Assembly: GCA_016840065.1 (NCBI GenBank)
Contig: JAEOTB010000037.1
Coordinates: 32,001 to 96,000 of the forward strand
Length of the DNA stretch: 64,000 bases
Source of the DNA: Candidatus Hermodarchaeota archaeon
GTDB taxonomy: Archaea > Asgardarchaeota > Hermodarchaeia > Hermodarchaeales > Hermodarchaeaceae
Direction: 5' to 3'
The notes under the pieces are model-generated. The model saw nothing but the letters and a program-made list of their open reading frames with translations, was not told the origin of the DNA and did no database searches. This document shows, piece by piece, positions 7,341 through 43,723 of the stretch (its first letter is position 1; each line of letters opens with the position of its first letter). Made by a program: the position numbers and the translations under genes.

Positions 7341-8383
7341 ATGAGTGAACCTCCATCAACCCCAACTCCCCCTCCTCCAGCAGAACCTGCACCCCCTCCA
7401 GTAGAATCATCTGGAATGACAATAGCCGAAGTCCGTAGCCACGCTACACGAATACTCGACGAAGTAAACAAACTAGTAGTCGGGAAGCGCCACTTACTTC
7501 AGAATATACTGATTGGTCTGCTCAGCGGCGGGCACATCCTGCTAGAGGGCGTTTAAGGAACGCTCGGCAAAAAGGTGTTCCCGGTATTGCCAAGACGTAT
7601 GCAGCTAATACATTCGCGCAAGCTGTTGGTTGTTTGTTCAAACGAGTCCAATTCACTCCAGACCTCTTACCTGTTGACGTGACTGGGCATTCAATCTTTA
7701 ATCCTAGCTCCGGTGAGTTTTCTCTCCGAAAAGGTCCAGTCTTTACAAACGTTCTCTTAGCTGACGAGATTAACCGCTCCCCGCCAAAAACCCAATCGTC
7801 TCTACTTGAAGCTATGCAGGAAAAGCAAGTTACTATCGAGGGAACGACACTCCCCCTGCCCCACCCATTTATGGTTCTAGCGACACAAAATCCAATCGAA
7901 CTTGAGGGGACCTATCCTCTTCCCGAAGCGCAAGTTGACCGTTTTCTCTTCAAACTTCACGTCGATTATCCTTCTGAAACAGAGGAGGTAGAAATTCTTC
8001 GTCGGAGACATATCGGAGTAGGAAGTCGGGTAGACGCTGTAGTAAACCCGAACATCATTTTACGGATGCAGAGTACAATAAGAGAAGTGTTTGTCGAACC
8101 GCACATTTTGAACTACATAAGAGACATAGTCGTGCGGACTCGGAATGACCCTCAAATCCTCATCGGCGGCTCCCCACGTGCCTCAATTGTTCTCTTAGAA
8201 ACCTCGAAAGCCCACGCCGCGTTACAAGGCAGAGACTTTGTAACACCAGACGACATAAAGATGCTAGTACGCCATACCTTGAACCATCGCTTAATTCTGA
8301 AACCTGAAGCAGAACTTGAGGGCGCTTCGGTCCACTCTGTAATCGATCGCATACTCCGTCAGATTGGAGTACCGGGAGCATAG
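7341..8383 (+). CDS. moxR: MoxR-family AAA+ ATPase, spliced: exon1 7341-7545, exon2 7572-8383 (338 aa)
   Basis: Removing a 26-nt BHB intron joins ORFs 7341..7556 and 7634..8383, giving [14 protein letters not shown] (Walker A), [18 protein letters not shown] (Walker B), [22 protein letters not shown]. Confidence 0.92.
7546..7571 (+). other. 26-nt BHB intron in moxR mRNA
   Basis: Central helix UGCU/GGCA, bulges AG^A and AA^A, intron hairpin GGGCGUU-UAAGG-AACGCUC, exon stem GGGCACAUC/GGUGUUCCC; splicing gives CTA G|AA GGT GTT CCC = LEGVP. Confidence 0.9.
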
Positions 8384-8389
8384 ACCCAA

Positions 8390-9712
8390 ATGTTCAGCGA
8401 GAGAGGCCGTACTGTTCTTCTCATCGGAATATTCGTACTAGTCGGGGGTTTCGCCTTCACAAACTACTTCCTGACACTCCTAGGTATCTTCCTAATTGTA
8501 GGATCAGTTGTAACCTCACCATATTTCCAACTTACAATGCCCTTAGAAAGTTTACAGGTCACACGGGAAATAGACAAGGCTAACTTCTTTCAGGGAGACT
8601 TCATCCACATCAAACTCGCAATAAGAAACACTGGACGAAGTCGGATTGACTCCATACGTATCTTCGATGTATATCCTGATATTTTCAGACTAGTTCTGGG
8701 GAAAAACGAGCTAGTCACACGAATCGACGCAGGACAAACAATAAAGTTTTCCTATATTATGCAGGGAACACTCCGGGGAAAATATACAATTGGACCCACG
8801 AAGTTCCAGATACATGACAGGCTTGAGTTCAGGTTCGAAGAGCTATCGGCAGAAAACCTAGATGAGATATTGATTTACCCAAGTTACCAAGACGCGCGGA
8901 TTATGGAATCCCTTGCTGCACGGCGAAGGGTAGGTTACGCATTTGGTATTCATAAAACTCGGCAGAAAATGGGTTCAGAGGATTTTGTAGGTATTCGTCG
9001 TTTTGTGAGTGGTGATGAATCTAGAAGGATAGATTGGAAAGCAGTAGCGCGTACTCACAAATTAATGGTGCGCGAGTACGAAACAGAGCGAAACATGAGA
9101 GTCTTCATAATTTTGGATTGTGGAGATACGATGAGTGCGGGAAAGGCTGAGAACAGTAAACTTGAGTATGCGATTCGTGCAGCACTTCTCCTTGCGAAAG
9201 CTGCGATGGAGCGTAAGGACAAGGTGGGGCTACTGGCCTGGTCTACCAGCCAAGATACCTATCTTAAACCTAGTCTTGGGGAGGGCCATTATTATCGACT
9301 CCTCGACATCTTGGCTGCTATAGAAGCAGGAGGAGAGTTTGATTTAGCTGCTGCAGTACAATTCGTCGCAGCGCATGTAACACAGCAGAGCTTCTTCATC
9401 ATCCTTTCAGATTGTGAAGCAAATAGAGCCCAGCTTGAGAAGGGTGTCAGATTGATTCGCGGTCACAAGCACCACGCTATAATTATCGCGCCTTTCGGTC
9501 CATGGTTCGAAATAGAGGATGTATACCTTTCACCAGTTGAACGTGCATTGGGTGAGGCAATAGTATACAAATTACTTGAAGAGCGCCGTGCCCTCTCACA
9601 GAGCTTCCGACGCGTAGGAGTTCCAATTATTGATGTGGGTCCTGGTGACATTTTACCGACACTACTAAGTGAATACCTGAAGGCAAAGAAGAAGGGAGTT
9701 GCACAAATCTAG
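8390..9712 (+). CDS. DUF58 (vWA-like) protein of MoxR operon
   Basis: DFVGIRRF..GDESRRIDWKAVAR..LMVREYE, IILDCGDTM. Confidence 0.88.
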   Translation: MFSERGRTVLLIGIFVLVGGFAFTNYFLTLLGIFLIVGSVVTSPYFQLTMPLESLQVTREIDKANFFQGDFIHIKLAIRNTGRSRIDSIRIFDVYPDIFRLVLGKNELVTRIDAGQTIKFSYIMQGTLRGKYTIGPTKFQIHDRLEFRFEELSAENLDEILIYPSYQDARIMESLAARRRVGYAFGIHKTRQKMGSEDFVGIRRFVSGDESRRIDWKAVARTHKLMVREYETERNMRVFIILDCGDTMSAGKAENSKLEYAIRAALLLAKAAMERKDKVGLLAWSTSQDTYLKPSLGEGHYYRLLDILAAIEAGGEFDLAAAVQFVAAHVTQQSFFIILSDCEANRAQLEKGVRLIRGHKHHAIIIAPFGPWFEIEDVYLSPVERALGEAIVYKLLEERRALSQSFRRVGVPIIDVGPGDILPTLLSEYLKAKKKGVAQI

Positions 9713-9760
9713 ATAGGTGGTTAGCATGGAGGTGAAAACAGCATTTCGCGAATAACTCTT

Positions 9761-10963
9761 TTGGCGCTTCGGGGTGTAGCTGTCGTATCGTTCATAGTCT
9801 TTACTATGATTATTTTCTTGAACATCGATACTCAAGTCTGGAGTTCGCAGGTTCTAGTTACGTTTGCCATAGAGGCCCGGAACTTCATAAGCACTCTAAT
9901 CTCAATTCTTTCCTGGTTATTTGGACAATTACTTGGATGGTTATTTGGTCTTGGACATGAAGAGCTGACACAGATTTATGAGGCGACCAATGCATACTTC
10001 GCAGCACTGGGGTTTGGTAGTGTTCGAACCCTTGACCAAGCCATCCCAGCATTTCTCAGCAGCCTCTACTACCTCGGTTTTCAGCTACTCTTTCTGGCAG
10101 CGATCCTTGCAGGCATATTATCCCTATTCCGAATCAGCGGGCGGCTCACATCAATGTGCTTTGTCTCAATGATAGGGCTAGCCATGCTCGGAGCTGCTGC
10201 CCCCTCACTAACATTTCTAGAAACCTCCACCAGCTTCTTTGGAGCCAACTGGAGTGCAGATTCGAGCATCTTCTTAGATCCCGGAGCATTCTTTACTTCC
10301 ACAATTTTCCTTGTATCGATAATTTGTTACATCTATCTTGAAGCATCATATCAGGTTGTTTATTTTCACTCGCTTCTTGAGCCTCCCTCCATTAGAGAGG
10401 TACAACTCCGACGTCAATTATCAAGGCTCCGAGCTGATGCAGAACGAGAGGTTCCAGTCAGGAGTGACGAAGAGATTCCTGTCCCCAAGGTACTTCAGCG
10501 GATGTTGGGTTCCGAAGCCTTTAGGGTGATGCGGGAGGTTATTGGAAGGAAATTACTGCGCCGCGAATGGCTAATTGAATTAGAAGAGGCTCATGAAATT
10601 CGGCGATTAAATTCCTTTGTAGATAATTTGTTTCGAGTTGACGTTGAAGCAGAGTTGACCTTAACTGCTCGTGCAGCTACTCCCTCGCTCTCAAAAATGG
10701 CGGTTCTCTCACTTGTTTCCACCGTGCTTCGTTTTGCAGGTATCATCGTTGTTGCCTACTTGTCCTTTTATCCACTTTTCTTCATTGGGAGCATTGCTCC
10801 CTCGGTCATAATAGAATCTATCGATTTCCAATTCCTTACTGAAAAAATCATTATCCTCCTTCTACCCTTGTGCTTACTCTTTCCTCTTGCTTCAACTATT
10901 ATCAGTCGTCTCCGTCAACGTAATTCCCAATCAGAGGACACTACAAGTCAATCACAACAATAG
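9761..10963 (+). CDS. Polytopic membrane protein, last gene of MoxR operon
   Basis: Several hydrophobic segments; true start may be ATT at 9743 behind GGAGGTGA. Confidence 0.7.
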   Translation: MALRGVAVVSFIVFTMIIFLNIDTQVWSSQVLVTFAIEARNFISTLISILSWLFGQLLGWLFGLGHEELTQIYEATNAYFAALGFGSVRTLDQAIPAFLSSLYYLGFQLLFLAAILAGILSLFRISGRLTSMCFVSMIGLAMLGAAAPSLTFLETSTSFFGANWSADSSIFLDPGAFFTSTIFLVSIICYIYLEASYQVVYFHSLLEPPSIREVQLRRQLSRLRADAEREVPVRSDEEIPVPKVLQRMLGSEAFRVMREVIGRKLLRREWLIELEEAHEIRRLNSFVDNLFRVDVEAELTLTARAATPSLSKMAVLSLVSTVLRFAGIIVVAYLSFYPLFFIGSIAPSVIIESIDFQFLTEKIIILLLPLCLLFPLASTIISRLRQRNSQSEDTTSQSQQ

Positions 10964-11420
10964 CTCGTTGTGATGCACTTTCAGCAACAGATACAGCTAG
11001 TTGGTGTACATTTGGGAACTCTTGTTTTAAAACCGACCCTAACTTTGTAGCAAGAATCTTTGCTAACTCTTCCGCAGTTGTTTCAATAACGTCTAGTACT
11101 AAGACATCCTTTGTCGGAAAGGAGTATTCCCTTTCAGGAGTTTTAACCTCGGTATGTTCTCCTCTAGTTGAGATTTTAATTTGAGAGGAGTGGGCTGGTA
11201 GAAGGAGCCGGTGGTCCCATTCTTTACACAATAATCGTAGATGCTCCTTTACGACACGGAAATCAACAACCATTCCTTGAGAGTCGATTTCACCACTTAT
11301 CCGGACTGAGACTTGGTAATTGTGCCCATGCAGTCGTTCACATTTACCTCCTTCACTAACAAAATGGCCTGCCGAGAAGTCGATGCCCGATACTTCTATC
11401 AAAGTCTCTTTAATCATCAC
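10941..11420 (-). CDS. queD: 6-carboxytetrahydropterin / 6-pyruvoyl-tetrahydropterin synthase
   Basis: FSAGHF..CERLHGHNY..GMVVDF..WDHR..TTAEELA. Confidence 0.85.
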   Translation of the reverse strand: MMIKETLIEVSGIDFSAGHFVSEGGKCERLHGHNYQVSVRISGEIDSQGMVVDFRVVKEHLRLLCKEWDHRLLLPAHSSQIKISTRGEHTEVKTPEREYSFPTKDVLVLDVIETTAEELAKILATKLGSVLKQEFPNVHQLAVSVAESASQRAIVVIDL

Positions 11421-11465
11421 TATTCACAACTGATTCTTTATACATCTATTTTGGTCTAAAGGGTA

Positions 11466-11498
11466 GAAAAAGAGGAGGGGAGCGCCCACCAGGGGCGC
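11466..11498 (-). terminator. Hairpin plus U-tract terminator after thermosome gene
   Basis: Minus strand GCGCCC-CTGGT-GGGCGC followed by a pyrimidine run ending TTTTT. Confidence 0.55.
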
Positions 11499-11502
11499 GG
11501 TT

Positions 11503-13173
11503 TTACATCATTCCTGGAGGCATACCACCCATTCCTGGAGGCATACCACCCATTCCAGGGGGCATACCACCGGGACCACCAGGAGGAGCTGCACTTCGTT
11601 TAGAAGCTATGACATCGTCGATTCGGAGAATAAGAGCAGCTGCCTCTGTAGCTGAACGGAGCGCGTGTGTTTTCACTCGTAAAGGTTCAATGACACCTGC
11701 CTGTAGCATATCCTTGGTTTTTCCTTCGAAGACATCCACACCGATATTCGTCTTGTTTGAACCGTGATCAGAGCGGAGTTCAACGATTATATCTATTGGA
11801 TCATGCCCAGCGTTCTCTGCTAATGTCTTGGGAATGATTTCCACTGCGTCAGCAAATTTCCTCACTGTTATCTGATCGCGTCCCTTGAGAGAACGGGCAT
11901 ACTCACGCAGGCGTGTTGCTACTTCGATTTCAGGCGCGCCACCACCTGGTACCACTTTGCCATCCTCAATGGCATCTCGAACAACGCAGATAGCGTCACG
12001 GAAGGCTCGCTCAGCTTCGTCAACAACTCTCTCAGTACCGCCACGAAGGAGGATACACACAGATTTTGGATCAGTGCATTCAACGACGAAGACCATCTTG
12101 TCATCACCGACTTTGCGCTCCTCTACGAGACCGCACTCACCTAAATCTTGAGCAGTCAGGTGAAGAACTGAAGAAACGGTACGCCCACCAGTAGCCCGGG
12201 CAAGCGCCTCCATATCGCTTTTCTTGATGCGACGGACAGCTAGAATACCTTCTTTAGCGAGGTAGTGTTGGACTTTATCATCAATACCTTTCTGGCAGAA
12301 AACCACGTTTGCACCTGTTTCCTTAATCTTATCTGCGATGTTTTTCAACATCCTTGCTTCCTCTTCGAGGAATGCCTTCATTTGTTCAGGATCAGTGATT
12401 CGGATTTCTGCATCCATCTCTGTCTTCTCGACTTCCAACGAAGCGTTGAGAAGTGCAATCTTGGCACCCTTAATCATCGTTGGCATTTCTGAATGGACAA
12501 CTTCTTTATCAATAATCAAACCCCGAATAAGTTGGGTCTCATCGAGTGAGCCACCCTCCTTCTTCTCCACCTTGATGTGATCGATGTCTGCAACAATTCC
12601 TTTCGGAGTTTTTTCAGCTATTTGCAGCACTGCATCAACGGCAATGGGACTAAGAGAGTCCACCTCAGAAAAGACTAGCTTGCTAGCCATCGAAGTGTTC
12701 ACAATTTGTAAGAGCTTTTCCCGGTCTTCCATTGAACAGGGAATACTCATACTTTCAAGAACTTCATCAGCTTTCTCAACCGCTTTCCTGTAACCAGAGA
12801 TGATTACAGAAGAATGGATGTTCAATGTCAACATTGTTTGCGCTTGCTTGAGAAGTTCACCACAGAGAATAACAGCGGTAGTGGTACCATCACCCACTTC
12901 AGCATCTTGAGCTTTTGCGACCTGCACTAGCATTTTGGCTGCTGGGTGCTGCACCTCAATCTCGTCGAGGATTGTAGCGCCGTCATTAGTAATTGTGACA
13001 TCTCCTAGGCTATCCACTAGCATCTTGTCTTGACCACGAGGTCCAAGTGATGAGCGGATAGCATCAGCCAAGGCGCGAATGGCCATGATGTTGTTATAGC
13101 GGGCATCCCGGCCGCGAGATCTTTCAGTACCTTCTTTCAGTATGATTACAGGTACTCCGGATAACTGAGACAT
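11503..13173 (-). CDS. ths: Thermosome (group II chaperonin) subunit
   Basis: [35 protein letters not shown]-terminal GGMPPGM repeats. Confidence 0.97.
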
Positions 13174-13353
13174 TTTTATGGTTCCTCAATTAGCTTGAAT
13201 CGGTTCGGCAATCCTTGCACTTCAATAAAAGTCTTACGTAACTGCGACGAGGAAATGCTAATTCAGACTTCAATCTTGTACGTAGTAGTTAGCAATGACC
13301 CTCGATACATTATGTTGTCTTGGATTAGATAGTCCACGACGCCAGTTTCTTGT

Positions 13354-13956
13354 TTACAATTCGCTAAGAGATTCAAATTCCCAATCGGGGAATATATTGC
13401 GAAGCAGTTGCACGACTCCTCGAGACAGAAATACTATTTCCATCATAAATGCCATTGCAAGAATCTCAATCCATGCTTTTAGAGAAATCCCGAGAGCTAT
13501 AACAAACCCAGTGGCAGCATCTGGAGGCCAGCCGAATAATGGCATTACATTCACGAAGAGCCAGATGGTGAAGAAGCATTCAGGGATGTAGCTGACTGTT
13601 ACTGCTACTAGTGGGCGCTTTACATAGCGCTGGATGATACCGCAGAATCCTCCGGTTAACGCCTTCCCAAAAGGAAGAGCGATTAGACCAAAAACGCCTA
13701 GTTGTCCATGAGTAAAACCGAATGCGAATCCAGGATAAATCCCGACAATGGCTCCTGTAATTAAACCGACAAGTGGTCCACCAGGAATCGCAGCGAGGAA
13801 CGTTCCAACATGAGAGAAGTCTAGATCGATTCCTGGCGCTATAGAAGGTAGGAACTCGATAGTTATGATGGCTAGAGCTGTACCTAATGCAGCCATAATC
13901 GCGATATAAGCTATTGCCTTTGATGTGAGACGTCTTTCTGTCTTCAGCTTTGGCAT
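13354..13956 (-). CDS. ECF transporter substrate-binding S component
   Basis: IAYIAIMAAL, IDLDFSHV..GGPLVG pattern, about 6 TM segments, 200 aa. Confidence 0.75.
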   Translation of the reverse strand: MPKLKTERRLTSKAIAYIAIMAALGTALAIITIEFLPSIAPGIDLDFSHVGTFLAAIPGGPLVGLITGAIVGIYPGFAFGFTHGQLGVFGLIALPFGKALTGGFCGIIQRYVKRPLVAVTVSYIPECFFTIWLFVNVMPLFGWPPDAATGFVIALGISLKAWIEILAMAFMMEIVFLSRGVVQLLRNIFPDWEFESLSEL

Positions 13957-14098
13957 GGCGTTTCCTCCCGTTGAGAGTTATCTTTGGTTTGCTCTCCCTA
14001 TTTAAGAGATGCTACTCATCAAAGTGTATGAGTTGTTTGTAGAGTTAGGGAAAGTTATATCTGATTGTTTACCCGCGACTGAAGAGAGGTTGACTTCC

Positions 14099-15502
14099 AT
14101 GCCTACTTTTCGCCATCCATTCCTCCCCAATGCAGATGAGCAGCAGAAAGAAATGCTCGCCAAGCTGGGTATAACTACCGTCGAAGAGCTGTTCAAAGAT
14201 ATTCCTTCGAAATTCAAGTTTAAGGGAAAAATGAAAATCCCTGTAGGACTATCTGAAACAGAGGTCCGCCGCCATATTGAGAAACTTTTAGAGAAAAATT
14301 CAAACCCAGCTTCTTTTCTTAGTTTCCTAGGGGGTGGAGTCTGGCCTCATATGATTCCTGAGGTGGTTCATTCAGTCACAGGTCGTACTGAATTCTATAC
14401 AGCCTACACACCATATCAGGCCGAGATAAGTCAAGGTATGCTACAAGCACTCTTTGAGTACCAGAGTCTTATAGCGGAGCTTGTGGATCTTCCAGTAGTA
14501 AATGCTTCAATGTACGACTGGGCAAGCTCGCTAGGAGAAGCGGCGCTTATGACGCGACGCCTTACAAAGCGCTCCGCCTTCCTCATCCCCGAGTTCATCG
14601 CACCTAATCGGCGAGCAGTCCTAACTACTTACACAGCGCCAACTGATATTAAAATAAAGAGTGTACCCAGCGACCCAGTTCAAGGTAAAACTGATTTAGA
14701 GCAACTAAAGGAGAAGATGAACAGCAATGTTGCGGGCATTTATATTGAGAACCCCGCATATTTAGGATACTTGGAGCCAGATGTCGATGCAATTGCCGAA
14801 ATAGCACATGACTCTGGTGCATTGTTTGTTGTAGGTGTAGATCCTATTTCATTGGGGATTATTCGTCCCCCAGGCAATTATGACGCTGATATTGTAATCG
14901 GGGAGGGGCAGCCACTAGGCAATAACGTATACTTTGGTGGATCCCTGTTGGGTCTATTTGCCTGTAAGGATGACCGGAAAATATTGCGCCAGATGCCTGG
15001 AAGACTAATTGGATTGACCACCACAAAAGAGGGAGACAAAAGGGGATTTGTGATGACATTGCAAGCTCGAGAACAACATATACGGCGTGAGCGTGCAACA
15101 TCGAACATCTGTTCAAATCAAGCCCTTTGTGCTGTAGCAGCAGCTGCTTACCTTTGCACCCTAGGACCCACAGGGCTTCGGAAATTAGGAGAACGGATAA
15201 TGCAGTTGCGGCATTACACTGAACAAAAACTATCCCGTGTTGAAGGGATTCTAGCACCACGGTTTCAGGCTTCACACTTCAAGGAGTTCGTATTTTCACT
15301 TGACGAAGCCACAGCCAAGCGATTCTCTATTCAAAAAATGATGGCCAAAATTAGCCAAGAGAGAATTCAAGGTGGAATTCCATTGAACAAGGAGTTCCCC
15401 AAGTTGAAGGAATCCGCGCTAGTTTGCGTCACTGAACTCCAAACTAAGGAGTCCATCGATAAATTTACCGCGTCAATTCAGCAAATCCTGGAGGTGAACT
15501 AA
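14099..15502 (+). CDS. gcvPA: Glycine dehydrogenase (decarboxylating) subunit 1
   Basis: FLGGG, EFYTAYTPYQAEISQG, NASMYD, REQHIRRERATSNICSNQAL; start moved to ATG 14099 behind GAGAGGT. Confidence 0.96.
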   Translation: MPTFRHPFLPNADEQQKEMLAKLGITTVEELFKDIPSKFKFKGKMKIPVGLSETEVRRHIEKLLEKNSNPASFLSFLGGGVWPHMIPEVVHSVTGRTEFYTAYTPYQAEISQGMLQALFEYQSLIAELVDLPVVNASMYDWASSLGEAALMTRRLTKRSAFLIPEFIAPNRRAVLTTYTAPTDIKIKSVPSDPVQGKTDLEQLKEKMNSNVAGIYIENPAYLGYLEPDVDAIAEIAHDSGALFVVGVDPISLGIIRPPGNYDADIVIGEGQPLGNNVYFGGSLLGLFACKDDRKILRQMPGRLIGLTTTKEGDKRGFVMTLQAREQHIRRERATSNICSNQALCAVAAAAYLCTLGPTGLRKLGERIMQLRHYTEQKLSRVEGILAPRFQASHFKEFVFSLDEATAKRFSIQKMMAKISQERIQGGIPLNKEFPKLKESALVCVTELQTKESIDKFTASIQQILEVN

Positions 15503-15505
15503 CTA

Positions 15506-17044: not shown

Positions 17045-17105
17045 GCTGAATTCCTAGTAATACCTCAAACAGCAGATACAACCTATTAGAAGGGGTTCAG
17101 TAGGG

Positions 17106-17837
17106 CTAACCGCGTTTCTTACGTCCAGTTCTCTTAGGAGCTATCAACCCAACTTTACGACCTGGCGGAGTAGTACGCGCTACCGAACTCGGACCACCTG
17201 GGCGCTGCTTGGCCCCGCCGCCGTGTGGATGCGAACACGCGTTCATTGCTACTCCTCGAACTTTCGGATAAGTGTGACCCTTGGCTCGTTTCATTTTGTG
17301 TTTGCTGCCTGCCTTAACGAAGGGTTTCTCGAGGCGTCCACCACCAGAGACTACCCCTATACTCGCTCGGCAAGTGGAACTAAATGCTCTAGTTTTTCCG
17401 GAGGGAAGACGTACAAAGGTTTTACCATGACCTCGGGTCATAATTGTGGCGTATGTTCCCCCAGCCCGAACGAATTTCCCGCCATCGCCTGGCTGTCCTT
17501 CGATATTGAAGATTGGAGTACCTTCAGGAATCTTGCCCAAGGGGAGTATGTGACCTGCCCGTACACCAGCTTTTGGACCTATGCGAATTTGTTGACCAAC
17601 TGCTGTGCCTTCAGGCACCAGAGCTAGATATGTATCTCCGCTCTCTAACCGAAGGAGGGCAATAGGACAACCTCGCCCAGGCTCATGTTGCAGATCCTCT
17701 ACGATTGCGTTGAGATAGCCCTTTCGATCCATTAAAACGAGAGGAGGGTACTTCACTGCGCCGCGTCTGCGGTGAGTAAGCGCCCTAAAGGTAGGACTTC
17801 CACGACCCCGGCGTTGCACGTATATTCTTTTACCCAT
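17106..17837 (-). CDS. rpl2: 50S ribosomal protein L2
   Basis: MGKRIYVQRRGRGSPTF, VRGVAMNACSHPHGGG, PPGRKVG. Confidence 0.98.
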   Translation of the reverse strand: MGKRIYVQRRGRGSPTFRALTHRRRGAVKYPPLVLMDRKGYLNAIVEDLQHEPGRGCPIALLRLESGDTYLALVPEGTAVGQQIRIGPKAGVRAGHILPLGKIPEGTPIFNIEGQPGDGGKFVRAGGTYATIMTRGHGKTFVRLPSGKTRAFSSTCRASIGVVSGGGRLEKPFVKAGSKHKMKRAKGHTYPKVRGVAMNACSHPHGGGAKQRPGGPSSVARTTPPGRKVGLIAPKRTGRKKRG

Positions 17838-20170: not shown

Positions 20171-20290
20171 GCCGGGATAGCCCAGTGGTACGGCGCGGGC
20201 CTTGAGTGGCGAAGGTAACAAGTTCCTCCTTTTCCCCTGCTAGCCCGTGACTTTATAGTCTCGGGGGTTCAAATCCCTCTCCCGGCGCCA
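20171..20290 (+). tRNA. tRNA-Ser(UGA) with 35-nt intron at canonical 37/38 position (20207-20241)
   Basis: Acceptor GCCGGGA/TCCCGGC, G73, encoded CCA; anticodon stem CGGGC/GCCCG with CT-TGA-G^A; long variable arm GACT-TTAT-AGTC; T loop TTCAAAT. Confidence 0.93.
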
Positions 20291-20394: not shown

Positions 20395-20820
20395 TTGTTG
20401 CAGTTTGAATATTTCGATGATATCACTTCGGATCAAATGTTTCGAGCCTATGGACAGGATTTACCAGAGGTATTCAAGCACGCTGCAATGGCAATGTTTG
20501 GAATAATGTTCGATTTAGAAGAAGTACAAACCGAAGCGGAAATAGAGGTAGAGGCAACAGGAGCCTCCGAGGAGATGCTCCTTTATGATTGGCTGTCTAA
20601 CCTGCTATTCGAATTCGAGGTCAAGTACGTGTTCTTTGCAGACTTCAACGTCACAACTATCGAGCGTGATGAAGAAGGAAACTTGTACCTTGTTGGATTA
20701 GCAAGTGGAAGTCTTACGCCTCAGGAGCGGCGAACCCACGTCAAAGCGGTCACCTTCCACAGATTCTGCTTGGAAAAAATTGATAACAGGTATGTGGCTA
20801 CTGTAGTTGTGGATGTCTGA
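20395..20820 (+). CDS. Archease (RtcB cofactor)
   Basis: FEYFDDITSD..RAYG, LLYDWLSNLL, HVKAVTFH, ATVVVDV; directly upstream of rtcB. Confidence 0.92.
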   Translation: MLQFEYFDDITSDQMFRAYGQDLPEVFKHAAMAMFGIMFDLEEVQTEAEIEVEATGASEEMLLYDWLSNLLFEFEVKYVFFADFNVTTIERDEEGNLYLVGLASGSLTPQERRTHVKAVTFHRFCLEKIDNRYVATVVVDV

Positions 20821-20846: not shown

Positions 20847-22295
20847 ATGAAGGAGAAACTGAAACAACTAGACGAGTTTCGCTACTGGCTCGACAAGACA
20901 GCCCGCCCCAAGATGAGAGTAGGCGCGATGTTATTTGCTTCACGCAAAGTTATACAACAAATAGAAGATAGCGCGGTTGAACAATTAACCAACGTCGCCT
21001 GTCTACCAGGTGTTATTGAGCCAGTTTTAGCCATGCCAGACGCACATTGGGGATATGGCTTACCAATGGGCGCAGTCGGGGCCTTTGACGCTGAGGAGGG
21101 CGTGATATCAGCTGGGATGACCGGTTTTGATATCAACTGCGGTGTCCGGTTAATTCGTACTAATCTAACTCAGGCTGAAGTTAAGCCCAAACTTCGTCAG
21201 CTCATGGAGGAATTGTTCAGGCGCGTGCCTGCTGGCGTCGGCTCTAGAGGTAAGATTCGCTTGAGCAATTCCGAGTTGGATGGTGTTTTACAGCTTGGTG
21301 CTCGATGGGCAGTCGAGAGTGGTCGCGGAGTTGACGCGGATTTAGAGCACTGTGAGGAAAGGGGCAATATGGAGGGTGCCGCAACCGGCTTGCCAGAGCT
21401 TTCAGAGCGGGTACGAACGCGTGGAAAACCTCAGCTGGGCACACTCGGTGCCGGTAATCACTACCTTGAAGCCCAAGTAGTTGATGAGGTGTTTAATGAA
21501 GAGGCAGCCTCCCGTTTTGGTTTAGAAAAGGGGAAAGTGGTTGTGATGTTACATTGTGGATCTCGCGGTTTCGGTCACCAAGTGGCAACTGATTACCTGA
21601 AGAGTATGGAGGTGGCTGCGCGGAAGTATAAAATTTGGTTGCCAGACAGACAACTCGTCTGCGCTCCAACCACATCGCCAGAGGGGCAAGCCTACTATTC
21701 CGCGATGAAGTCAGCCGTGAACTACGCCTTCTGCAACCGGCAAGTAATGACTCACTGGATTCGGGAAGGCTTTGAAACTGTCTTTGGGCGAGACTGGGAA
21801 AAACTAGGTCTTCACCTAGTTTATGATGTTTGCCATAATATATGCAAGCTAGAAACCCACGAGTTACACGGTGCAAAAAGGCAACTCTACATTCATCGAA
21901 AAGGTGCTACTCGTGCTTTTGGACCCGGCAACCCGCTTATCCCCCCTCACTACCAACCCGTTGGACAGCCAGTACTGATTGGTGGCTCTATGGGCACAGC
22001 CTCTTATGTACTAGTTGGTACAGAGCAGGCAATGAAAGAATCGTACGGTTCTACATGCCATGGTGCTGGACGCGCTATGGGTCGAAAAGCAGCCACAAGG
22101 AGATTTCATGGTAGGGAGATTCAACGTTCGCTTGAGCAATCAGGTAAAGTGATAAAATCTCATAGCGCCAAGCTACTCGCTGAAGAAGCGCCCAAGGCTT
22201 ACAAGGATGTCCACATGGTGATTGACGCAGTCCACGGAGCAGGAATTTCTCTGAAAGTCACGCGCCAGATTCCAATGGGCACTGTCAAAGGCTGA
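20847..22295 (+). CDS. rtcB: RNA-splicing ligase RtcB
   Basis: MPDAHWGYGLPMG, GFDINCGVR, LGTLGAGNHYLE, HCGSRGFGHQ, HRKGATRA, STCHGAGR, EEAPKAYKDV. Confidence 0.97.
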   Translation: MKEKLKQLDEFRYWLDKTARPKMRVGAMLFASRKVIQQIEDSAVEQLTNVACLPGVIEPVLAMPDAHWGYGLPMGAVGAFDAEEGVISAGMTGFDINCGVRLIRTNLTQAEVKPKLRQLMEELFRRVPAGVGSRGKIRLSNSELDGVLQLGARWAVESGRGVDADLEHCEERGNMEGAATGLPELSERVRTRGKPQLGTLGAGNHYLEAQVVDEVFNEEAASRFGLEKGKVVVMLHCGSRGFGHQVATDYLKSMEVAARKYKIWLPDRQLVCAPTTSPEGQAYYSAMKSAVNYAFCNRQVMTHWIREGFETVFGRDWEKLGLHLVYDVCHNICKLETHELHGAKRQLYIHRKGATRAFGPGNPLIPPHYQPVGQPVLIGGSMGTASYVLVGTEQAMKESYGSTCHGAGRAMGRKAATRRFHGREIQRSLEQSGKVIKSHSAKLLAEEAPKAYKDVHMVIDAVHGAGISLKVTRQIPMGTVKG

Positions 22296-36494: not shown

Positions 36495-36495
36495 A

Positions 36496-37287
36496 TTGGT
36501 GTTGACAGTAAAAACCATTGTTCTTCGAGTTGATGGAACCAACTGCGATGTTGAACTAGTGGAAGCGTTTCGTCAGGCTGGTGCACAAACAGAGCGAATT
36601 CATATCAACGAGTTAATTCGGGAGAAGTACTCTCTTGAGGAATATCACATTCTAGCTATTCCTGGAGGATTTTCTTATGGAGATTATGTGGCTGCAGGAA
36701 AGCTTCTTGCTAACGATTTGAAGTATCGTCTCCGCAAAGATGTGGAGCAGTTCATTGACCAATCTAAACCAATATTAGGAATTTGTAACGGCTTTCAAGC
36801 ACTAGTAAAGGCGGGGTTCTTACCTGCACTTGACGGACGACGTGAGCAGCAAGCAACCCTTGCGACCAATGATAAGGCCCTTTTCATTGATCGTTGGATT
36901 TACCTCAAACACGAAAACCAGGGAACATGTATTTTCACTAAATCCTTGGATAACCAGTTATACGTGCCAGTTAATCATGGTGAAGGAAAATTCGTGATGA
37001 AGGAATCTGATATTCAGCGCTTAGAAGAAAGCGACCAGATAGTGTTTAGGTATGTGAATCCTAAAGGTGAACTTGCAGGATATCCATGGAACCCAAATGG
37101 ATCAGTCTCAAATATCGCAGGTATTTGTGATGAACACGGTACTATCCTCGGTTTGATGCCACATCCAGAGAAGTATATCCACAGATATCAACATCCATTC
37201 TGGACCCGTCTGTCTGAATTAGAATTTAGTGGATGGCTTCCTCTCTTCAAGAACGCGGTTGATTATGCTAGGAGGCGTTTTCTTTGA
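36496..37287 (+). CDS. purQ: FGAM synthase glutaminase subunit
   Basis: GTNCD, PGGFSYGD, GICNGFQ, NHGEG, NPNGS, LMPHPE. Confidence 0.96.
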   Translation: MVLTVKTIVLRVDGTNCDVELVEAFRQAGAQTERIHINELIREKYSLEEYHILAIPGGFSYGDYVAAGKLLANDLKYRLRKDVEQFIDQSKPILGICNGFQALVKAGFLPALDGRREQQATLATNDKALFIDRWIYLKHENQGTCIFTKSLDNQLYVPVNHGEGKFVMKESDIQRLEESDQIVFRYVNPKGELAGYPWNPNGSVSNIAGICDEHGTILGLMPHPEKYIHRYQHPFWTRLSELEFSGWLPLFKNAVDYARRRFL

Positions 37288-38186
37288 AAATTTTAGGACA
37301 ATCTGCGAGCCTTGTTAGCAAGGGGAAGAATAAGGACATCTACTCTTTGGATAATGGGCGGTTAGGCTTTGTCTTCACAAGTCGTGTTTCCGCTTTTGAC
37401 GGGGTTGTCGGCACAACTACCCCAAAACGAGGGGAACTACTCTGTGAGTGCTCAGCAATGATATTCTCCCTATTTGAGAAGTTAGATATACCAACCCATC
37501 TGCTTCAATGGGGCTCCAATCAGATGATTGTGAAAAAACTTGTGCGCCTTCCTTTTGAGTTTATAGTGAGGAACGTTTTAATGGGTAGCGCATTCAAACG
37601 TTATTCTCGTGGGGAACTTGAATTACCTGAGGGAATGACTGGAATAGAATATGATGAGTTTCCCAAACCCTTCTTTGAGATAACGACCAAACTAGAAAAG
37701 CAAGACCGGCTCGTCAGTGGAGAGGAGATTCCAATTATTGCAAGGAAACACTTACCGGGTTATCAAAGAGAAGTAATAGAGACAGTGATGAATAAAACCA
37801 AGGAAACAACAGAGAGAATTGGGTTCTTGTTGAACCGCGTATTTGCTGCAGCAGGCTTTGTCTTCATAGATGGGAAACTAGAGTACGGGCTTGACGAGGA
37901 TGGAAAACTATATGTCATCGACTCGTTTGGCCCAGATGAATTTCGCGCCTGTACTCCTAGCTCACTGGCTAGAACCTTGTTGAATATTCAAGACTCACCA
38001 GATTTCTACGACAAAGAATTCCTTCGCCGACAGCTCAGAGAAGCTCCAAAAGATGGAAGAGAGGAAGTTGTAGAACAGATTGCAGTAGAGCTTGAACTAC
38101 GTTATGAGAGAATTACCTTAGCTCTTAGAGAAGTTATTAAGATGATTATCCAAACTCCCAAAGCACTCGAAAAACTCCAGCGGTGA
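37284..38186 (+). CDS. purC: SAICAR synthase
   Basis: GKNKDIY, RVSAFD, EFIVRN..GS, DGKLEYG, PDEFR, YDKEFLR. Confidence 0.92.
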   Translation: MKILGQSASLVSKGKNKDIYSLDNGRLGFVFTSRVSAFDGVVGTTTPKRGELLCECSAMIFSLFEKLDIPTHLLQWGSNQMIVKKLVRLPFEFIVRNVLMGSAFKRYSRGELELPEGMTGIEYDEFPKPFFEITTKLEKQDRLVSGEEIPIIARKHLPGYQREVIETVMNKTKETTERIGFLLNRVFAAAGFVFIDGKLEYGLDEDGKLYVIDSFGPDEFRACTPSSLARTLLNIQDSPDFYDKEFLRRQLREAPKDGREEVVEQIAVELELRYERITLALREVIKMIIQTPKALEKLQR

Positions 38187-38190
38187 TGTT

Positions 38191-39294
38191 ATGCCGATAA
38201 AGCGAGATGAAGTTCAAGAAATTGTGAGAAAATATCAGAAAGTTACAATTGGAGTATTGGGTTCGCATTCAGCAGAAGAAGTTGGGATGGCTGCTAAATC
38301 CGCTGGATTAGAGACGGTTGTAATTTGTCAAAAGGGGCGAGAAGCCCTTTACGCAGAATATAGTAAGCACCTGTTTGATCACATTATCGTTTTAGACCAG
38401 TTCAAAGATATCCTTGATGTTCAAGAAAAACTCCGTGAGCTAAACACTATCTTTCTCCCCAACCGATCTTTCTCAGTGTATATAGGCTATGACAACATCG
38501 AAGACAAGTTCCTAGTCCCTATGTATGGAAATCGATTCATGCTACGTATCGAAGAACGAACCGTACAAAAGAACCAATACTGGCTACTGGAAAAGGCTGG
38601 TATTAGAACACCTCAAGAATTCACAAGCCCTGATGAAATCGACCGCCTTGTTGTTGTAAAACTCCAGCGTAAGGAGGAAAGTGTTGAAAGGGCTTTCTTC
38701 TACCCTAGTTCGCCCGAGGAATATCACACTCAAGCAAAGGAACTTGTTGACAGTGGCTTTATCCGTGAAGAGGATCTCACTACAGCGAGAATTGAGGAAT
38801 TCATAGTTGGTCCTAGGTTTCACGCTAACTTCATTGCCTACACTGTGCTACCAGGTTTCGATTTTGTCGGCTTTGAAGATAGAGTTCAATCAAACATCAG
38901 TGGCATTCTGGCCCTTCCTGCTAAGGAGCAATTGAAAATTGATGTGCCAGTAATAATTGAACCCATTGGACATTTCGGTCTGACAATGAGAGAATCAAAG
39001 AAGCCATTAATCTATGAAGCAGGTAGGCGGTTCATCGAAGCATCAAGAAAATACTTCTCTCCCGGGATAATTGGACCCTTCTCTTTACAAGGCGCCGTAC
39101 CTCAACCACCAGATTTTGTGGTTTTCGATGTGAGTCCACGAATACCAGGTTCTCCTTGCGTAGGACCCTCTTCGCCAGAGATGCACAGATTATCTCTTAA
39201 ATATAATATGGAGATACACTCACCGCTTGAACTCTGCATGATGGAAATCAATCAAGCACTGAAACTATCAAGGCTTACCGAGGTGGTCACGTGA
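38191..39294 (+). CDS. PurP-like ATP-grasp protein (divergent paralog)
   Basis: GVLGSHSA, PNRSFSVY, ERAFF, RESKKP, GPFSLQ, DVSPRIPG. Confidence 0.85.
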   Translation: MPIKRDEVQEIVRKYQKVTIGVLGSHSAEEVGMAAKSAGLETVVICQKGREALYAEYSKHLFDHIIVLDQFKDILDVQEKLRELNTIFLPNRSFSVYIGYDNIEDKFLVPMYGNRFMLRIEERTVQKNQYWLLEKAGIRTPQEFTSPDEIDRLVVVKLQRKEESVERAFFYPSSPEEYHTQAKELVDSGFIREEDLTTARIEEFIVGPRFHANFIAYTVLPGFDFVGFEDRVQSNISGILALPAKEQLKIDVPVIIEPIGHFGLTMRESKKPLIYEAGRRFIEASRKYFSPGIIGPFSLQGAVPQPPDFVVFDVSPRIPGSPCVGPSSPEMHRLSLKYNMEIHSPLELCMMEINQALKLSRLTEVVT

Positions 39295-40370
39295 GTGAAG
39301 ACCTGATTCAGAGCTATTCTACCAAGGATTTATCGATAGCTACAATATGCAGTCATACGGCTCTCCAAATTTTCCACGGAGCACGTCAAGAGGGGTTCAA
39401 GACCATTGGTATTTGTAGACCAGAACGAAAAGAACTCTATGAAGCATTCCCTTATGGCTCACCAGATGAATTCTTGCTAGTAGATGATTTCTCCGAAATT
39501 TTGCAGTCAGAAATCCAGGACCGATTAATTGATGCTGGCGCGATAATGGTTCCTCACGGGTCTTTTGTCGAATATGTAGGACCTTCAAGAATCCTAGAGG
39601 ACCTCCGTGTACCTACCTTTGGGAATAAAATGAGTTTGAATTGGGAGGGCAACCGTCATCAAGAGCTGAAGTGGCTTTCTGATGCCAAGCTACGCTTACC
39701 GAACAAATTTGAGCCCCACGAAATCGATAGACTTTGCATCGTTAAATTTCACGGCGCAAAAGGAGGGCGTGGATTCCTTCTAGTTTCTTCTGAGGAGGAA
39801 TACCACCAACTTCTAGAGAAATCATTGAAGGAGGGGAAAATCAGCAGATTAGATGCAGACACAGCAGTGATACAAGAGTATGCGATTGGGGTTCGGTGCT
39901 ATGTGCATTATTTCTATTCATCAATATTAAATCGATTAGAGCTATTGAGTATGGACCAAAGGCTTGAGTCGAATATAGATGAATTACATCGGATGGGCTC
40001 AACAAGGCAGGAATTAGCGAAGTTGGGTGTTGACCCGTCCTATGTTGTTATGGGCAATATACCTATGGTGCTTCGTGAAAGCTTGTTGCCAGAAGTGTTG
40101 GCTCTAGGAGAAAGAACAATAGAAAGTTCTCAGAAGCTCTTCTCTCCCGGTTTGACTGGCCCCTTCTGTTTAGAGATGATTTGCACTCCAGAGTTGGAGT
40201 TCATAGTCTTTGAAATCTCAGCTCGAATAGTAGCTGGAACTAATCTATTTCCCTTAGGTTCTCCATACTCCTGCTACTTGTGGGGAGAAGCTATGTCTAC
40301 AGGAAGACGAATTGCCTGGGAGATGAAAGAAGCTCAGCGTACAGAGAGATTAGGAGAAATCATTAGTTGA
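39291..40370 (+). CDS. purP: Formate-dependent AICAR formylase (FAICAR synthetase)
   Basis: ATICSHTALQI, PHGSFVEY, GAKGGRG, RLESNID, LRESLLP, FEISARIVAGTN. Confidence 0.92.
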   Translation: MSEDLIQSYSTKDLSIATICSHTALQIFHGARQEGFKTIGICRPERKELYEAFPYGSPDEFLLVDDFSEILQSEIQDRLIDAGAIMVPHGSFVEYVGPSRILEDLRVPTFGNKMSLNWEGNRHQELKWLSDAKLRLPNKFEPHEIDRLCIVKFHGAKGGRGFLLVSSEEEYHQLLEKSLKEGKISRLDADTAVIQEYAIGVRCYVHYFYSSILNRLELLSMDQRLESNIDELHRMGSTRQELAKLGVDPSYVVMGNIPMVLRESLLPEVLALGERTIESSQKLFSPGLTGPFCLEMICTPELEFIVFEISARIVAGTNLFPLGSPYSCYLWGEAMSTGRRIAWEMKEAQRTERLGEIIS

Positions 40371-40380
40371 GGTTCCTGTA

Positions 40381-41826
40381 ATGAAAGTAAAAGAAGCGTG
40401 TGGCGTTGTTGGCATCAGTGCAGTTCCTCCGACCCGAGTTGCACCTCAAATGTATGTCGGTTTATTAGCCCTGCAGCATAGGGGTCAAGAGAGCAGCGGA
40501 TTATGTACTGTTTCTGAAGAAGGGCTTGAGAGTCGGAGAAGAAAGGGACTTGTAAGCAAGTTCTCAGGTACAGAAATAGACCGTCGTAAGGGGTGGGCGG
40601 GGATTGGACATGTCAGGTATAGTACCACTGGTGCGGTTCGCCTTCGTGAAGCACAACCCTTCCTATTCTCTGCGGGAAACACACGGTTAGCTCTAGCATT
40701 CAATGGAACCATTGCAAATTATCGAGTGCTACGGAAAGAACTCAGACGGGAACGTTACAAATTCCTTACCTGTACTGACACAGAAACAATTGCTCAGCTT
40801 TTCGCCGCAAAGCTAAGAAAGACAGGACATGACTACATCTCCTCCTTTGAGTCCTTAATGGAAGAGCTGATTGGCGGGTATTCGCTCGCAATATTAAATG
40901 AGAAAGGCGACCTTTTTGCAGTTCGTGATCCTTTTGGGTTTAAGCCGCTCTGTCTAGGCAGACTAAGCCAAGAGAGTTTTAGTGTTTCCTCAGAGAGCGT
41001 CGCGTTCGACACAATGAGTGGTCAACTTGTACGTGACGTGAAACCTGGTGAAGTTGTCAAGGTCAACCATGACAGCGTAGAAGGAGTTCAAATCCAGAAG
41101 GAGGAACGGCATGCTCACTGCATGTTCGAATATGTTTACTTCAGCCGCCCTGACTCAGTTATTGATGGACGCTCTGTTTATCAAGTTCGCCAAAGACTTG
41201 GAAGAAAATTAGCAAAGATCCACCCAGCAAAGGCGGACTTGATTATACCAGTACCTGACTCAGGGAGGGGGGCAGCCACTGGATTCTCTATTGAGAGCGG
41301 ACTCCCAATCAGGGAAGGTTTGATGAAGAACCGATATATCGGTCGCACCTTTATTATGCCAACACAGGGATTCCGGGAATTTTCTGTAAAGCTAAAACTA
41401 AATCCTGTACGATCGGTTGTAGAAGGAAAGAACATAGTACTCGTTGATGACTCGATTGTTCGTGGCACAACAATCAAACATATTGTTCGGCTGCTAAGGA
41501 GTGTTGGTGCTAAGAGCATCCACTTACGAATCAGCTGTCCACCGATAATCATGCCATGTTACATGGGCATTGATTTCCCAACTAGGCGGGAACTCATTGC
41601 AGCAGACTATTCTGTTGAAGAAATATGTCAGTACATCGGTGCTGATTCACTCGGTTACATGAGCGTTGATGGACTAGCAGAAGCGATTGAAATACCTAGA
41701 AATCAGCTTTGCCTTGCCTGCCTAACCGGTGATTATATCCTCCGAGAACGCCTAAAGGGACAATCTGTCGAGGCTCTAGAAACCGCCTTCTCAAGACGAC
41801 TCCCATCACCTAGGCAAGAACCCTAG
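40381..41826 (+). CDS. purF: Amidophosphoribosyltransferase
   Basis: EACGVVG, LQHRGQES, GHVRYST, CMFEYVYFSRPDS, VPDSG, VDDSIVRGTT. Confidence 0.97.
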   Translation: MKVKEACGVVGISAVPPTRVAPQMYVGLLALQHRGQESSGLCTVSEEGLESRRRKGLVSKFSGTEIDRRKGWAGIGHVRYSTTGAVRLREAQPFLFSAGNTRLALAFNGTIANYRVLRKELRRERYKFLTCTDTETIAQLFAAKLRKTGHDYISSFESLMEELIGGYSLAILNEKGDLFAVRDPFGFKPLCLGRLSQESFSVSSESVAFDTMSGQLVRDVKPGEVVKVNHDSVEGVQIQKEERHAHCMFEYVYFSRPDSVIDGRSVYQVRQRLGRKLAKIHPAKADLIIPVPDSGRGAATGFSIESGLPIREGLMKNRYIGRTFIMPTQGFREFSVKLKLNPVRSVVEGKNIVLVDDSIVRGTTIKHIVRLLRSVGAKSIHLRISCPPIIMPCYMGIDFPTRRELIAADYSVEEICQYIGADSLGYMSVDGLAEAIEIPRNQLCLACLTGDYILRERLKGQSVEALETAFSRRLPSPRQEP

Positions 41827-41891
41827 TCTCAACTGATACTACAATTTTTCCGTTGTGAGAAGTAGCGCCTTTCCAATAGGAATTCGGATGA

Positions 41892-42200
41892 CTATTTTAT
41901 TGAAATTTCTATGAAGACTTCTTCAGGAACACGGATTCGCATTATCTGACGCATGGTTCTTTCATCCGCTTCCAAGTCGATAAGGCGTTTGTGAATGCGC
42001 AGCTGCCAGCGATCCCAGGTTGGAGTTCCCTCCCCACAAGGTGATTTTCGGGTCTGCACCTTCATGATTTTAGTTGGTAAGGGAATAGGACCAGACATGT
42101 GAACCCCAGTACGGCTGACAATGGCCTTCACTTGCTTACAAACGTCATTTAGCTTGCTAATATCCACACTTGACAGCCGAATACGCGCCTTTTGTACCAT
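41892..42200 (-). CDS. rps10: 30S ribosomal protein S10
   Basis: [33 protein letters not shown]. Confidence 0.97.
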
Positions 42201-42258
42201 CTTTATCAACACTTAGCTAACATTTCGCGTGATGACTTGCCATCGATAAAAAGGCTTC

Positions 42259-42272
42259 CATATAACTCTTTT
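42259..42272 (-). promoter_or_regulatory. BRE-TATA promoter of rps10
   Basis: Minus strand AAAAGAGTTATATG, similar to the tuf and rps12 promoter cores. Confidence 0.55.
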
Positions 42273-42324
42273 TACCAAACACAAAAACGAAGTATTAGCA
42301 ACAGCTAACACTGACATAAATCCG

Positions 42325-42365
42325 AAAAAAAGAGGAAGAAGAGACAAGTGCCCTAGAGCACTGTC
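42325..42365 (-). terminator. Hairpin plus oligo-U terminator after tuf
   Basis: Minus strand GACAGTGC-TCTAGG-GCACTTGTC, then a pyrimidine run ending in T7. Confidence 0.6.
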
Positions 42366-42367
42366 CA

Positions 42368-43723
42368 CTACTTCTTTACTGTTATCTTCTGTACTACTCC
42401 AACAGCCACTGTGCGACCACTATCACGAATCGCAAACCGACCCAGCTGCTTCATATCGGCAAACCGCTCTAACACAATTGGCTGCACTGGACTGAACTTG
42501 ACGATAGCTGATTCACCTTGTTTGATGAAGTCTGGCTTCTCCTCCACCGTCTCGCCAGTACGAGGATCAATCTTGCTGATAAGCTCAGTGAAAGTCGTTG
42601 CCATCTGGAGTGTGTGAGCGTGCATAACTGGTGTGTACCCAGCGGCTATGGCTCGTGGGTGATGGATTACGATTATTTGTCCAACGAAATCTGTGATAAC
42701 CTTGGGTGGGTCGCTGACATGACCCATGACATCACCACGTTGAACCTCGCCTTTTCCAATGCCACGAACATTGAAACCGATGTTGTCGCCCGGCTCAGCC
42801 TTCTGCATTTTCTCATGGTGCATCTCGATTGACTTGACTTCGCCCGTATGCCCAGAGGGCATGAAGATTACTTTATCGCCAACTTTCAAAACACCAGTTT
42901 CAACTCTACCAACGGGAACAGAGCCTACGCCAGTAATGGTGTAGCAGTCCTGGATTGGTACTCGCAATGGTGCTTTGAGTGGTTTCTCTGGCTGTACGAA
43001 CTTGTCAAGAGCCTGGAGCAAGGTGGGACCTTTATACCAGGGCATGTTCTCACTAGCCTTATCCAGCCCATCTCCTGTCCAACCGCTGGTTGGGATGAAA
43101 TCGACTTTGCTTGGATCGAATTGAGCACCCTGGAGCACTGAAGTGACTTCTGCCTTGATTTCCTCGTAGCGTTCTTGGCTCCAAGGAGGCGTAGAGTCGT
43201 CCATCTTGTTCACAGCAACAGCGACCTGCTCGATACCAAGGGTTCGGGCAAGGAATGCGTGCTCACGGGTCTGCCCGCCCGCACTGATTCCAGCTTCAAA
43301 CTCACCCTTACGTGATGAAACGACAAGAATCGCCGCATCAGCCTGGCTGGCACCCGTAATCATGTGCAAGAATTAAGGAGCGTACCCCTCAATTATTCTT
43401 GATGAAGTCCGCGTGCCCAGGAGCGTCAATCAGCGTGAAGTAGTGTTTTTGTGTCTCGAATTTTCGAAAAGCTAGATCGATTGTTAGCCCACGTTCTCGC
43501 TCTTCCTTCAAGCGATCCATTACTTACCCCTTCATATCGTGTGATATGAAGTGTAGGCGAACTTGAACGAGGCGTCTTTCGTTTCTGATGCTAGCTTTTC
43601 TAATTTGAGCATTTCTTGTTTCGTTAGCGCACCCGTGACATATACGAGGTGGCCCATTAGCGTTGATTTACCATGATCAACGTGACCAATGATGATCAAG
43701 TTGATGTGTGGTTTAGTAGCCAT
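42368..43723 (-). CDS. tuf: Elongation factor 1-alpha, spliced from three exons: 43723-43553, 43523-43396, 43364-42368 (431 aa)
   Basis: Spliced product reads [15 protein letters not shown]|[37 protein letters not shown]|[13 protein letters not shown]; the middle exon is missing from the ORF track; 171+128+997 = 1296 nt. Confidence 0.95.
43365..43395 (-). other. 31-nt BHB intron 2 of tuf mRNA
   Basis: Exon stem UCAU/AUGA, central helix CAAG/CUUG, bulges AA^U and CA^C, intron hairpin AAUUGAGGGG-UACG-CUCCUUAAUU; splicing gives AAG AA|C ATG = K N M. Confidence 0.93.
43524..43552 (-). other. 29-nt BHB intron 1 of tuf mRNA
   Basis: Central helix GCCU/GGGU, bulges AC^A and AA^G, perfect 9-bp hairpin CUUCAUAUC-ACAC-GAUAUGAAG; splicing gives GCC TAC|GTA ATG GAT = A Y V M D. 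Confidence 0.92.

Follow-up and report, generated by a model that had tools for sequence, protein, structure and literature searches.

How can a cell make its elongation factor from a gene whose reading frame is broken twice? The question is raised by a 64,000-nucleotide stretch of the genome of a Candidatus Hermodarchaeota archaeon (GenBank GCA_016840065.1, contig JAEOTB010000037.1, positions 32,001 to 96,000), hereafter the window, in which tuf (EF-1alpha) carries two short inserts and the unrelated moxR gene a third. A first-pass annotation proposed that these are tRNA-type introns, recognized through the motif known as bulge-helix-bulge (BHB), cut by the endonuclease EndA and joined by RtcB with archease. 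According to our analysis, the inserts are almost certainly protein-spliced mRNA introns of the EndA type, and the messages would need splicing to be read. The studied Hermodarchaeia assembly (G000) was compared with a genome of the sister genus (G004) and with three other assemblies of the class (G001, G002, and G003). Within the window the two genes are divided as follows:

7341..7545, plus strand: moxR exon 1; its last codon (Glu) lies directly before Walker A
7546..7571, plus strand: moxR intron, 26 nt, relaxed BHB, central helix (H) 4/4 including two G-U pairs
7572..8383, plus strand: moxR exon 2, encoding AAA_3 and AAA lid
43553..43723, minus strand: tuf exon 1, 57 codons
43524..43552, minus strand: tuf intron 1, 29 nt, relaxed BHB, a member of the dnaG-intron sequence family
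43396..43523, minus strand: tuf exon 2, switch I through the DAPGH motif
43365..43395, minus strand: tuf intron 2, 31 nt, textbook hBHBh' with a 4-bp exon stem, a 4-bp H and a 10-bp hairpin
42368..43364, minus strand: tuf exon 3

Our results confirmed the three inserts of 26 to 31 nt. Alignment of the DNA with 12 intron-free tuf orthologues showed that both tuf inserts are clean additions with no exon base lost, and the moxR insert is likewise a clean addition relative to the intron-free moxR of G002. None of the lengths (26, 29, and 31 nt) is a multiple of three. Read without splicing, moxR ends after 71 aa, at a TAA in the loop of the intron hairpin (7-8 bp), and tuf ends after 63 aa, or after 101 aa if intron 1 alone is removed. 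Cutting at the bulges restores the frame in all three cases, as claimed: deletion of 7546-7571 yields a 338-aa MoxR, and deletion of 43524-43552 and 43365-43395 a 431-aa EF-1alpha, each with the terminal stop as its only one. We looked for a second, intact tuf and found no other EF-1alpha in the G000 assembly, which is 84% complete; the next matches share 24-25% identity.

The architecture first described for the inserts stands in its core. All three have a central helix with 4/4 pairs, 3-nt bulges and an intron hairpin of 8-10 bp. A full exon-exon stem beside the bulge is present in tuf intron 2 only, whereas the moxR intron and tuf intron 1 have a mismatch adjoining the bulge and are thus of the relaxed type. 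The ensemble probability of the central helix (ViennaRNA) is 0.98 for tuf intron 2, 0.5-0.9 for moxR and about 0.1 for tuf intron 1. The hairpin is placed asymmetrically, 1 nt from the 5' end of the intron and 6 nt from its 3' end. The junction of tuf intron 1 cannot slide in either direction by homology and coincides with the BHB cut; that of an intron in dnaG, described below, is likewise unique. For tuf intron 2 and moxR, about four and several registers, respectively, would give an equivalent protein, and the BHB cut is one among them. In dnaG and moxR the cuts fall within codons.

To learn how far such inserts extend, we searched for insertions in both directions between G000 and 2.18 Mb of G004, using protein homology only and leaving the motif aside. 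Among clean, well-aligned, frame-breaking inserts in the two genomes, a BHB was found among the tied junctions in 9/9, while only 1/285 natural in-frame indels has one. By chance, H>=3 together with a hairpin of >=4 bp arises in 0.33% of random position-length pairs, and H=4 in 0.05%. The G000 share of the nine consists of both tuf introns, moxR, two acs copies and a kbl/bioF-type gene; the G004 share is three. The introns outside the window, with one further case supported by a G004 orthologue, one G004 candidate and the dnaG intron, are:

G000:C113:13561-13591 and C105:254-284: acs introns in two gene copies, 31 nt each, homology-supported
G000:C104:14835-14868: intron of the kbl/bioF-type gene, 34 nt, H 3/4, homology-supported
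G000:C85:7196-7226: 31-nt intron after codon 11, supported by the G004 orthologue (535 aa, no Pfam match)
G000:C10:107682-107712: dnaG intron, 31 nt, 11.7 kb beyond the window
G004, cbf5: 41-nt intron, from the census
G004:C23:131117-131145: 29-nt intron, from the census, in a gene that we take to be roadblock-like from our own reading of its sequence
G004:C25:75791-75825: 35-nt intron of an unnamed enzyme gene, from the census
G004:C23:40400-40430: 31-nt candidate intron in EF-2

With dnaG, G000 thus has at least 8 mRNA introns in 7 loci over 2.59 Mb. This is a lower bound, as the census misses introns common to G004 and cannot see into short first exons or genes that lack an orthologue; a scan for introns common to both genomes returned dnaG only. 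A de novo BHB scan that ignored homology is dominated by noise, since the true geometry gave 114 loci and decoy offsets gave 105-123, and therefore only homology-supported introns were counted. Candidates at C75 and C69 and two in G004 proved to be gene boundaries. The two acs copies are 88% alike and are accompanied by a third fragment, possibly reflecting a strain mixture. The first-pass annotation had inferred genome-wide splicing; several unrelated genes are indeed interrupted, but at the density of the window, 3 per 64 kb, the genome would hold about 120 introns, far above the 8 supported. mRNA introns in G000 are sparse, not dense. Their proposed location in or beside conserved motifs holds in part: 8/10 sites lie above the median local identity, but the link is modest and carries a detection bias.

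The genome encodes the enzymes that the proposal requires. Three genes of the window lie in a row:

20171..20290, plus strand: tRNA-Ser gene immediately before archease; ARAGORN calls a 35-nt intron in it
20395..20820, plus strand: archease (PF01951), the RtcB cofactor
20847..22295, plus strand: RNA ligase rtcB (PF01139), uninterrupted

Two EndA paralogues are encoded elsewhere in G000, beyond the window, and fit the (alpha-beta)2 type. The alpha subunit, at C85:16767-17324, has the Tyr-His-Lys triad and a crenarchaeal-type N-terminal loop, and the second paralogue, at C10:100109-100714, lacks the His and fits a beta subunit. The alpha loop aligns with that of the best solved matches, 3p1z/3ajv (E 6e-45), which we take to be the Aeropyrum pernix enzymes. 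This loop has been linked to the cutting of relaxed motifs and is also reported in Asgard EndA (PMC5829648). By homology, the host EndA would admit relaxed motifs. The Asgard affiliation guessed from the sequence holds as well: the host belongs to Hermodarchaeia, a class of 19 species in two genera, and the nearest named dnaG loci (94-98% identity) are from Hermodarchaeota metagenome-assembled genomes (MAGs).

The intron of the tRNA-Ser gene failed a strict BHB rule; its motif may be of the relaxed type, or its bounds may be wrong. ARAGORN finds only 18 tRNAs in G000, and several more tRNA genes (C10, C85) appear after removal of one or two BHB introns at non-canonical positions; these calls are rough. 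As for the surroundings of the interrupted genes, moxR sits in an operon of transglutaminase-Ig, DUF4350, MoxR, DUF58 and membrane-protein genes (window 2368-10963, plus strand). The gene next upstream of tuf (43889-52279, minus strand) encodes a 2796-aa Ig-repeat protein; rps7 takes this place in some related contigs.

The introns differ strongly in their distribution. That of dnaG, 28-31 nt long, interrupts the gene in 18/18 Hermodarchaeia genomes that have dnaG. Its proposed structure pairs 96.6% of cells, compared to 39-53% in slid controls, and was matched by 0/500 shuffles, although shuffle controls on related sequences overstate the significance. Compensatory changes were observed at 4 pairs in the dnaG-intron family, tuf intron 1 included. 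Jordarchaeia and Wukongarchaeia carry unrelated BHB introns in dnaG 13 nt upstream of the Hermodarchaeia site (L189-L193), which we regard as independent gains; most other Asgard dnaG frames among those listed are intact. A 1.5-kb JGI contig (sample 3300036486) lacks exactly the dnaG intron, at both bulge cuts, and may be a transcript or an intron-free allele. Only this contig runs through the junction among about 60 DnaG clusters of the Hermodarchaeia type, and when JGI metagenomes were scanned for the joined dnaG sequence, the single match was an unrelated euryarchaeal gene. Public DnaG entries of Hermodarchaeia have invented N-termini or are truncated, and the public EF-1alpha entry is a 331-aa fragment.

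Both tuf introns are private to the G000 species, as they occur in 0/12 relatives (Hermodarchaeia with the 5' part of tuf), and the dependence of EF-1alpha on splicing is therefore recent. The suggestion that EF-1alpha synthesis depends on splicing would consequently apply to this species as judged from its gene, but not to the lineage. The moxR intron is common to G003, where one loop base differs, and is absent from G002 and from the sister genus. The acs intron recurs in G003, and the kbl site of G001 holds a different intron of 28 nt with a perfect helix. An intron in cbf5 was found in 14/14 genomes of the sister genus (L222-L235) and in none of the genus of G000. It is 40-43 nt long, and five copies are of 42 nt and preserve the frame. 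It lies just before the KPPG motif, unlike the crenarchaeal cbf5 intron. An orthologue of that intron was sought and rejected, as cbf5 is uninterrupted in G000 and interrupted at another site in the sister genus. Outside these genomes, an unrelated 34-nt BHB intron is present in the P-loop of an EF-1alpha gene of another lineage (JGI 3300038469, L216:1447-1480), and an 11-nt copy of the joined exon sequence within it hints at an origin by local duplication. A Hermodarchaeia tuf in JGI 3300041074 (L215:1225-1240) has lost about 26 nt of switch I, which breaks the frame; this deletion is not an intron and is probably an assembly error.

Where could a private intron such as tuf intron 1 come from? 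It agrees with several sister-genus dnaG introns at 27/29 positions and scores 24, whereas shuffles reach 10 at most. With the dnaG intron of G000 itself the score is 17.5, and the common blocks are only 13 and 12 nt. The same six bases, GCCTAC, precede both introns and supply the central helix and the first bulge. They occur 892 times in 5.2 million positions, and both genus mates checked already carry them in tuf genes that have no intron. A degenerate pattern of the family, run against 400 Asgard genomes, returned only Hermodarchaeia dnaG, G000 tuf and one match, inside an intact helicase gene of G107, that is due to chance. When about 40 tentative tRNA introns of G000 and G004 were compared with the mRNA introns, none exceeded the shuffle maximum, these tRNA calls being rough. 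Since the pattern is confined to dnaG and tuf and no tRNA intron resembles it, it is not a generic mini-intron consensus.

Most likely, then, tuf intron 1 is a copy of an old dnaG-family intron inserted into a matching site. The closer match to sister-genus alleles would be explained either by later change of the G000 dnaG hairpin or by a foreign donor, and the copy could have been made either through DNA repair or through a combination of reverse splicing with reverse transcription. For tuf intron 2 and the moxR intron no donor was found, nor any relative of tuf intron 2; in the moxR intron, the 5' arm is similar to the exon bases that follow, which hints at a local duplication. On balance we lean towards a sparse and dynamic system of Asgard mRNA introns, in which BHB mini-introns are copied between protein genes where the upstream bases complete the helix, tuf intron 1 being a transposition from the class-wide dnaG intron, possibly from its sister-genus allele, caught in one species.

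Our reading of the mechanism, to which we give a probability of about 0.9, is that EndA cuts and RtcB with archease ligates, the introns being insertions that the cell tolerates and that stay at conserved sites because imprecise loss there would be lethal. Four exon bases would pair with four bases near the 3' end of the intron while the rest of the intron folds into the hairpin, two 3-nt bulges flanking the helix. The heterotetrameric EndA would cut after the second base of each bulge, the loop of its catalytic subunit admitting relaxed motifs, and RtcB and archease would join the exons, as expected from established biochemistry. Each EF-1alpha message would undergo two such events. Introns would be gained and lost gene by gene: the one in dnaG would be ancestral to the class, that in cbf5 belongs to the sister genus, those in moxR, acs and kbl are patchy within a genus, and those in tuf are private to a species. 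The dnaG-family intron would have been copied into a tuf site with the same six upstream bases, and these bases would provide the helix that makes the copy removable. Selection on the conserved sites would maintain precision, with no dedicated regulatory system. The sequence-level marks of EndA-spliced introns were all found: helix and bulges, bulge cuts that give the uninterrupted homologous sequence, a structure conserved in the dnaG family and a matching geometry at the kbl site of G001, and the host enzymes.

Several points weigh against this interpretation. The splicing of the inserts is predicted here from DNA sequence, and the contig with the dnaG junction may be an intron-free allele rather than a transcript. 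Both tuf introns come from one assembly, which is 84% complete and 5% contaminated. In tuf intron 1 the central helix is predicted to be a minor conformer, and the shuffle controls on dnaG flatter the result, as said above. A search for a reverse transcriptase of family RVT_1, which could account for the copying step, found none.

The alternative that survives best keeps the mechanism and changes the function: the introns would be real and act as an evolved regulatory switch that ties EF-1alpha, DnaG and others to the tRNA-splicing capacity of the cell. Sites in conserved motifs and the null products of intron retention would suit such a switch, as would the class-wide maintenance of the dnaG intron and the fact that Wukongarchaeia and Jordarchaeia gained theirs independently, 13 nt upstream. 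However, the introns of tuf, moxR, acs and kbl have a patchy distribution within a single genus, and the lethality of imprecise loss is by itself enough to explain why introns persist at conserved sites. We consider a general switch unlikely; a regulatory role is possible for the dnaG intron and unsupported for the patchy ones.

Far less probable is that the inserts are assembly errors or inactivating insertions in recent pseudogenes, with a working tuf left unassembled. The restriction of the tuf introns to a single incomplete MAG and the hint of strain mixture in acs speak for it. However, independent assemblies also have interruptions at the moxR, acs, kbl, and dnaG sites, and errors would not yield BHB geometry in 9/9 cases. 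The blocks common to tuf intron 1 and the dnaG intron of the same genome are too short for a mis-join. Furthermore, tuf lies in its normal position before rps10 on a 132-kb contig, shows no other lesion and is under purifying selection (nonsynonymous divergence dN 0.054, synonymous divergence dS 1.2-1.6; dN/dS about 0.04), as is moxR exon 2 between G000 and the intron-bearing G003 (dN 0.064, dS 1.05).

Ribosomes could also bypass the hairpins, or shift frame over them, with no splicing at all, as in gene 60 of phage T4. The moxR gene would suit this, with a stop and a hairpin after a Val codon that recurs 26 nt downstream; yet the landing codon differs in the moxR of G003, take-off and landing codons do not match in either tuf intron, the dnaG and moxR cuts fall inside codons, and the exon-intron helix and the asymmetry of the hairpin are left unexplained, so that we find this hardly credible. 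Equally hard to credit is an EF-1alpha made as three re-initiated pieces that assemble, since the ATG found within two codons of the start of exons 2 and 3, downstream of G-rich stretches in the introns, encodes Met residues conserved in intron-free orthologues, the G domain would be split three ways, no start precedes Walker A in moxR exon 2 and the BHB would go unexplained. Two other types of element were considered and rejected. Group I or II self-splicing introns need a core above about 150 nt, compared to 26-31 nt here, and Rfam matches one tRNA only in the window. Elements of the miniature inverted-repeat transposable (MITE) or repetitive extragenic palindromic (REP) type do not fit an asymmetrically inset hairpin, the lack of target duplication at the tuf inserts, or a family of two copies here and one per relative.

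Preferring spliced introns, we compared them with known cases. The BHB intron of cbf5 pre-mRNA occurs in Desulfurococcales and Sulfolobales, where splicing was shown experimentally (Watanabe 2002; Yoshinari 2006; Yokobori 2009, PMC2738675). The Hermodarchaeia introns resemble it in being short coding-sequence introns without an open reading frame, with a relaxed BHB, an (alpha-beta)2 EndA, a conserved site and gain or loss among relatives. They differ in that the crenarchaeal case concerns one gene and one site, at a catalytic Asp codon, whereas here at least 7 loci are interrupted in one genome of an Asgard host, two introns lie in one essential mRNA and an intron family is common to two mRNAs. 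In Haloferax volcanii, HVO_1309 has a 46-nt BHB intron in the 5' untranslated region of its mRNA, also cut by EndA (PMC7714728, PMC10485636); the location, the alpha2-type enzyme and the single case set it apart. A 2023 review lists cbf5 and this Haloferax gene as the only spliced archaeal mRNAs. Transposing tRNA introns in Thermoproteales (Fujishima 2010, as cited in bioRxiv 10.64898/2026.10.13.758758) appear, from that citation, to share with our case related short introns at different loci under BHB constraint, whereas here donor and acceptor are both mRNAs. The same 2026 preprint, on Asgard tRNA introns, reports almost no shared families, mentions neither mRNA introns nor Hermodarchaeia, and presents the arrival of archaeal BHB introns as the central open problem.

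We found no report of mRNA introns in Asgard archaea in the literature covered, which includes few subscription papers; that literature knows archaeal mRNA splicing from cbf5, as the sole coding sequence, and from one 5' untranslated region. In eukaryotes, HAC1 and XBP1 lose a short, frame-changing intron (26 nt in XBP1) without the spliceosome, and a tRNA ligase, RtcB in animals, joins the exons. Their splicing is regulated, and the cuts are made at stem-loops by IRE1, a nuclease unrelated to EndA. The resemblance to the Hermodarchaeia introns is one of analogy.

As read from the genomes, splicing would be needed for EF-1alpha, DnaG and several other proteins in one Asgard class, and two other classes add cases in dnaG. 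Frame-changing mRNA splicing with ligation by RtcB is thus probably routine in relatives of eukaryotes, with no descent to the eukaryotic systems implied. Annotation and marker-gene phylogenomics are affected. A donor-acceptor pair with a matched target flank offers a direct test of how BHB introns arrive, and the copy of the dnaG intron in tuf, if true, would show such introns moving between protein genes.

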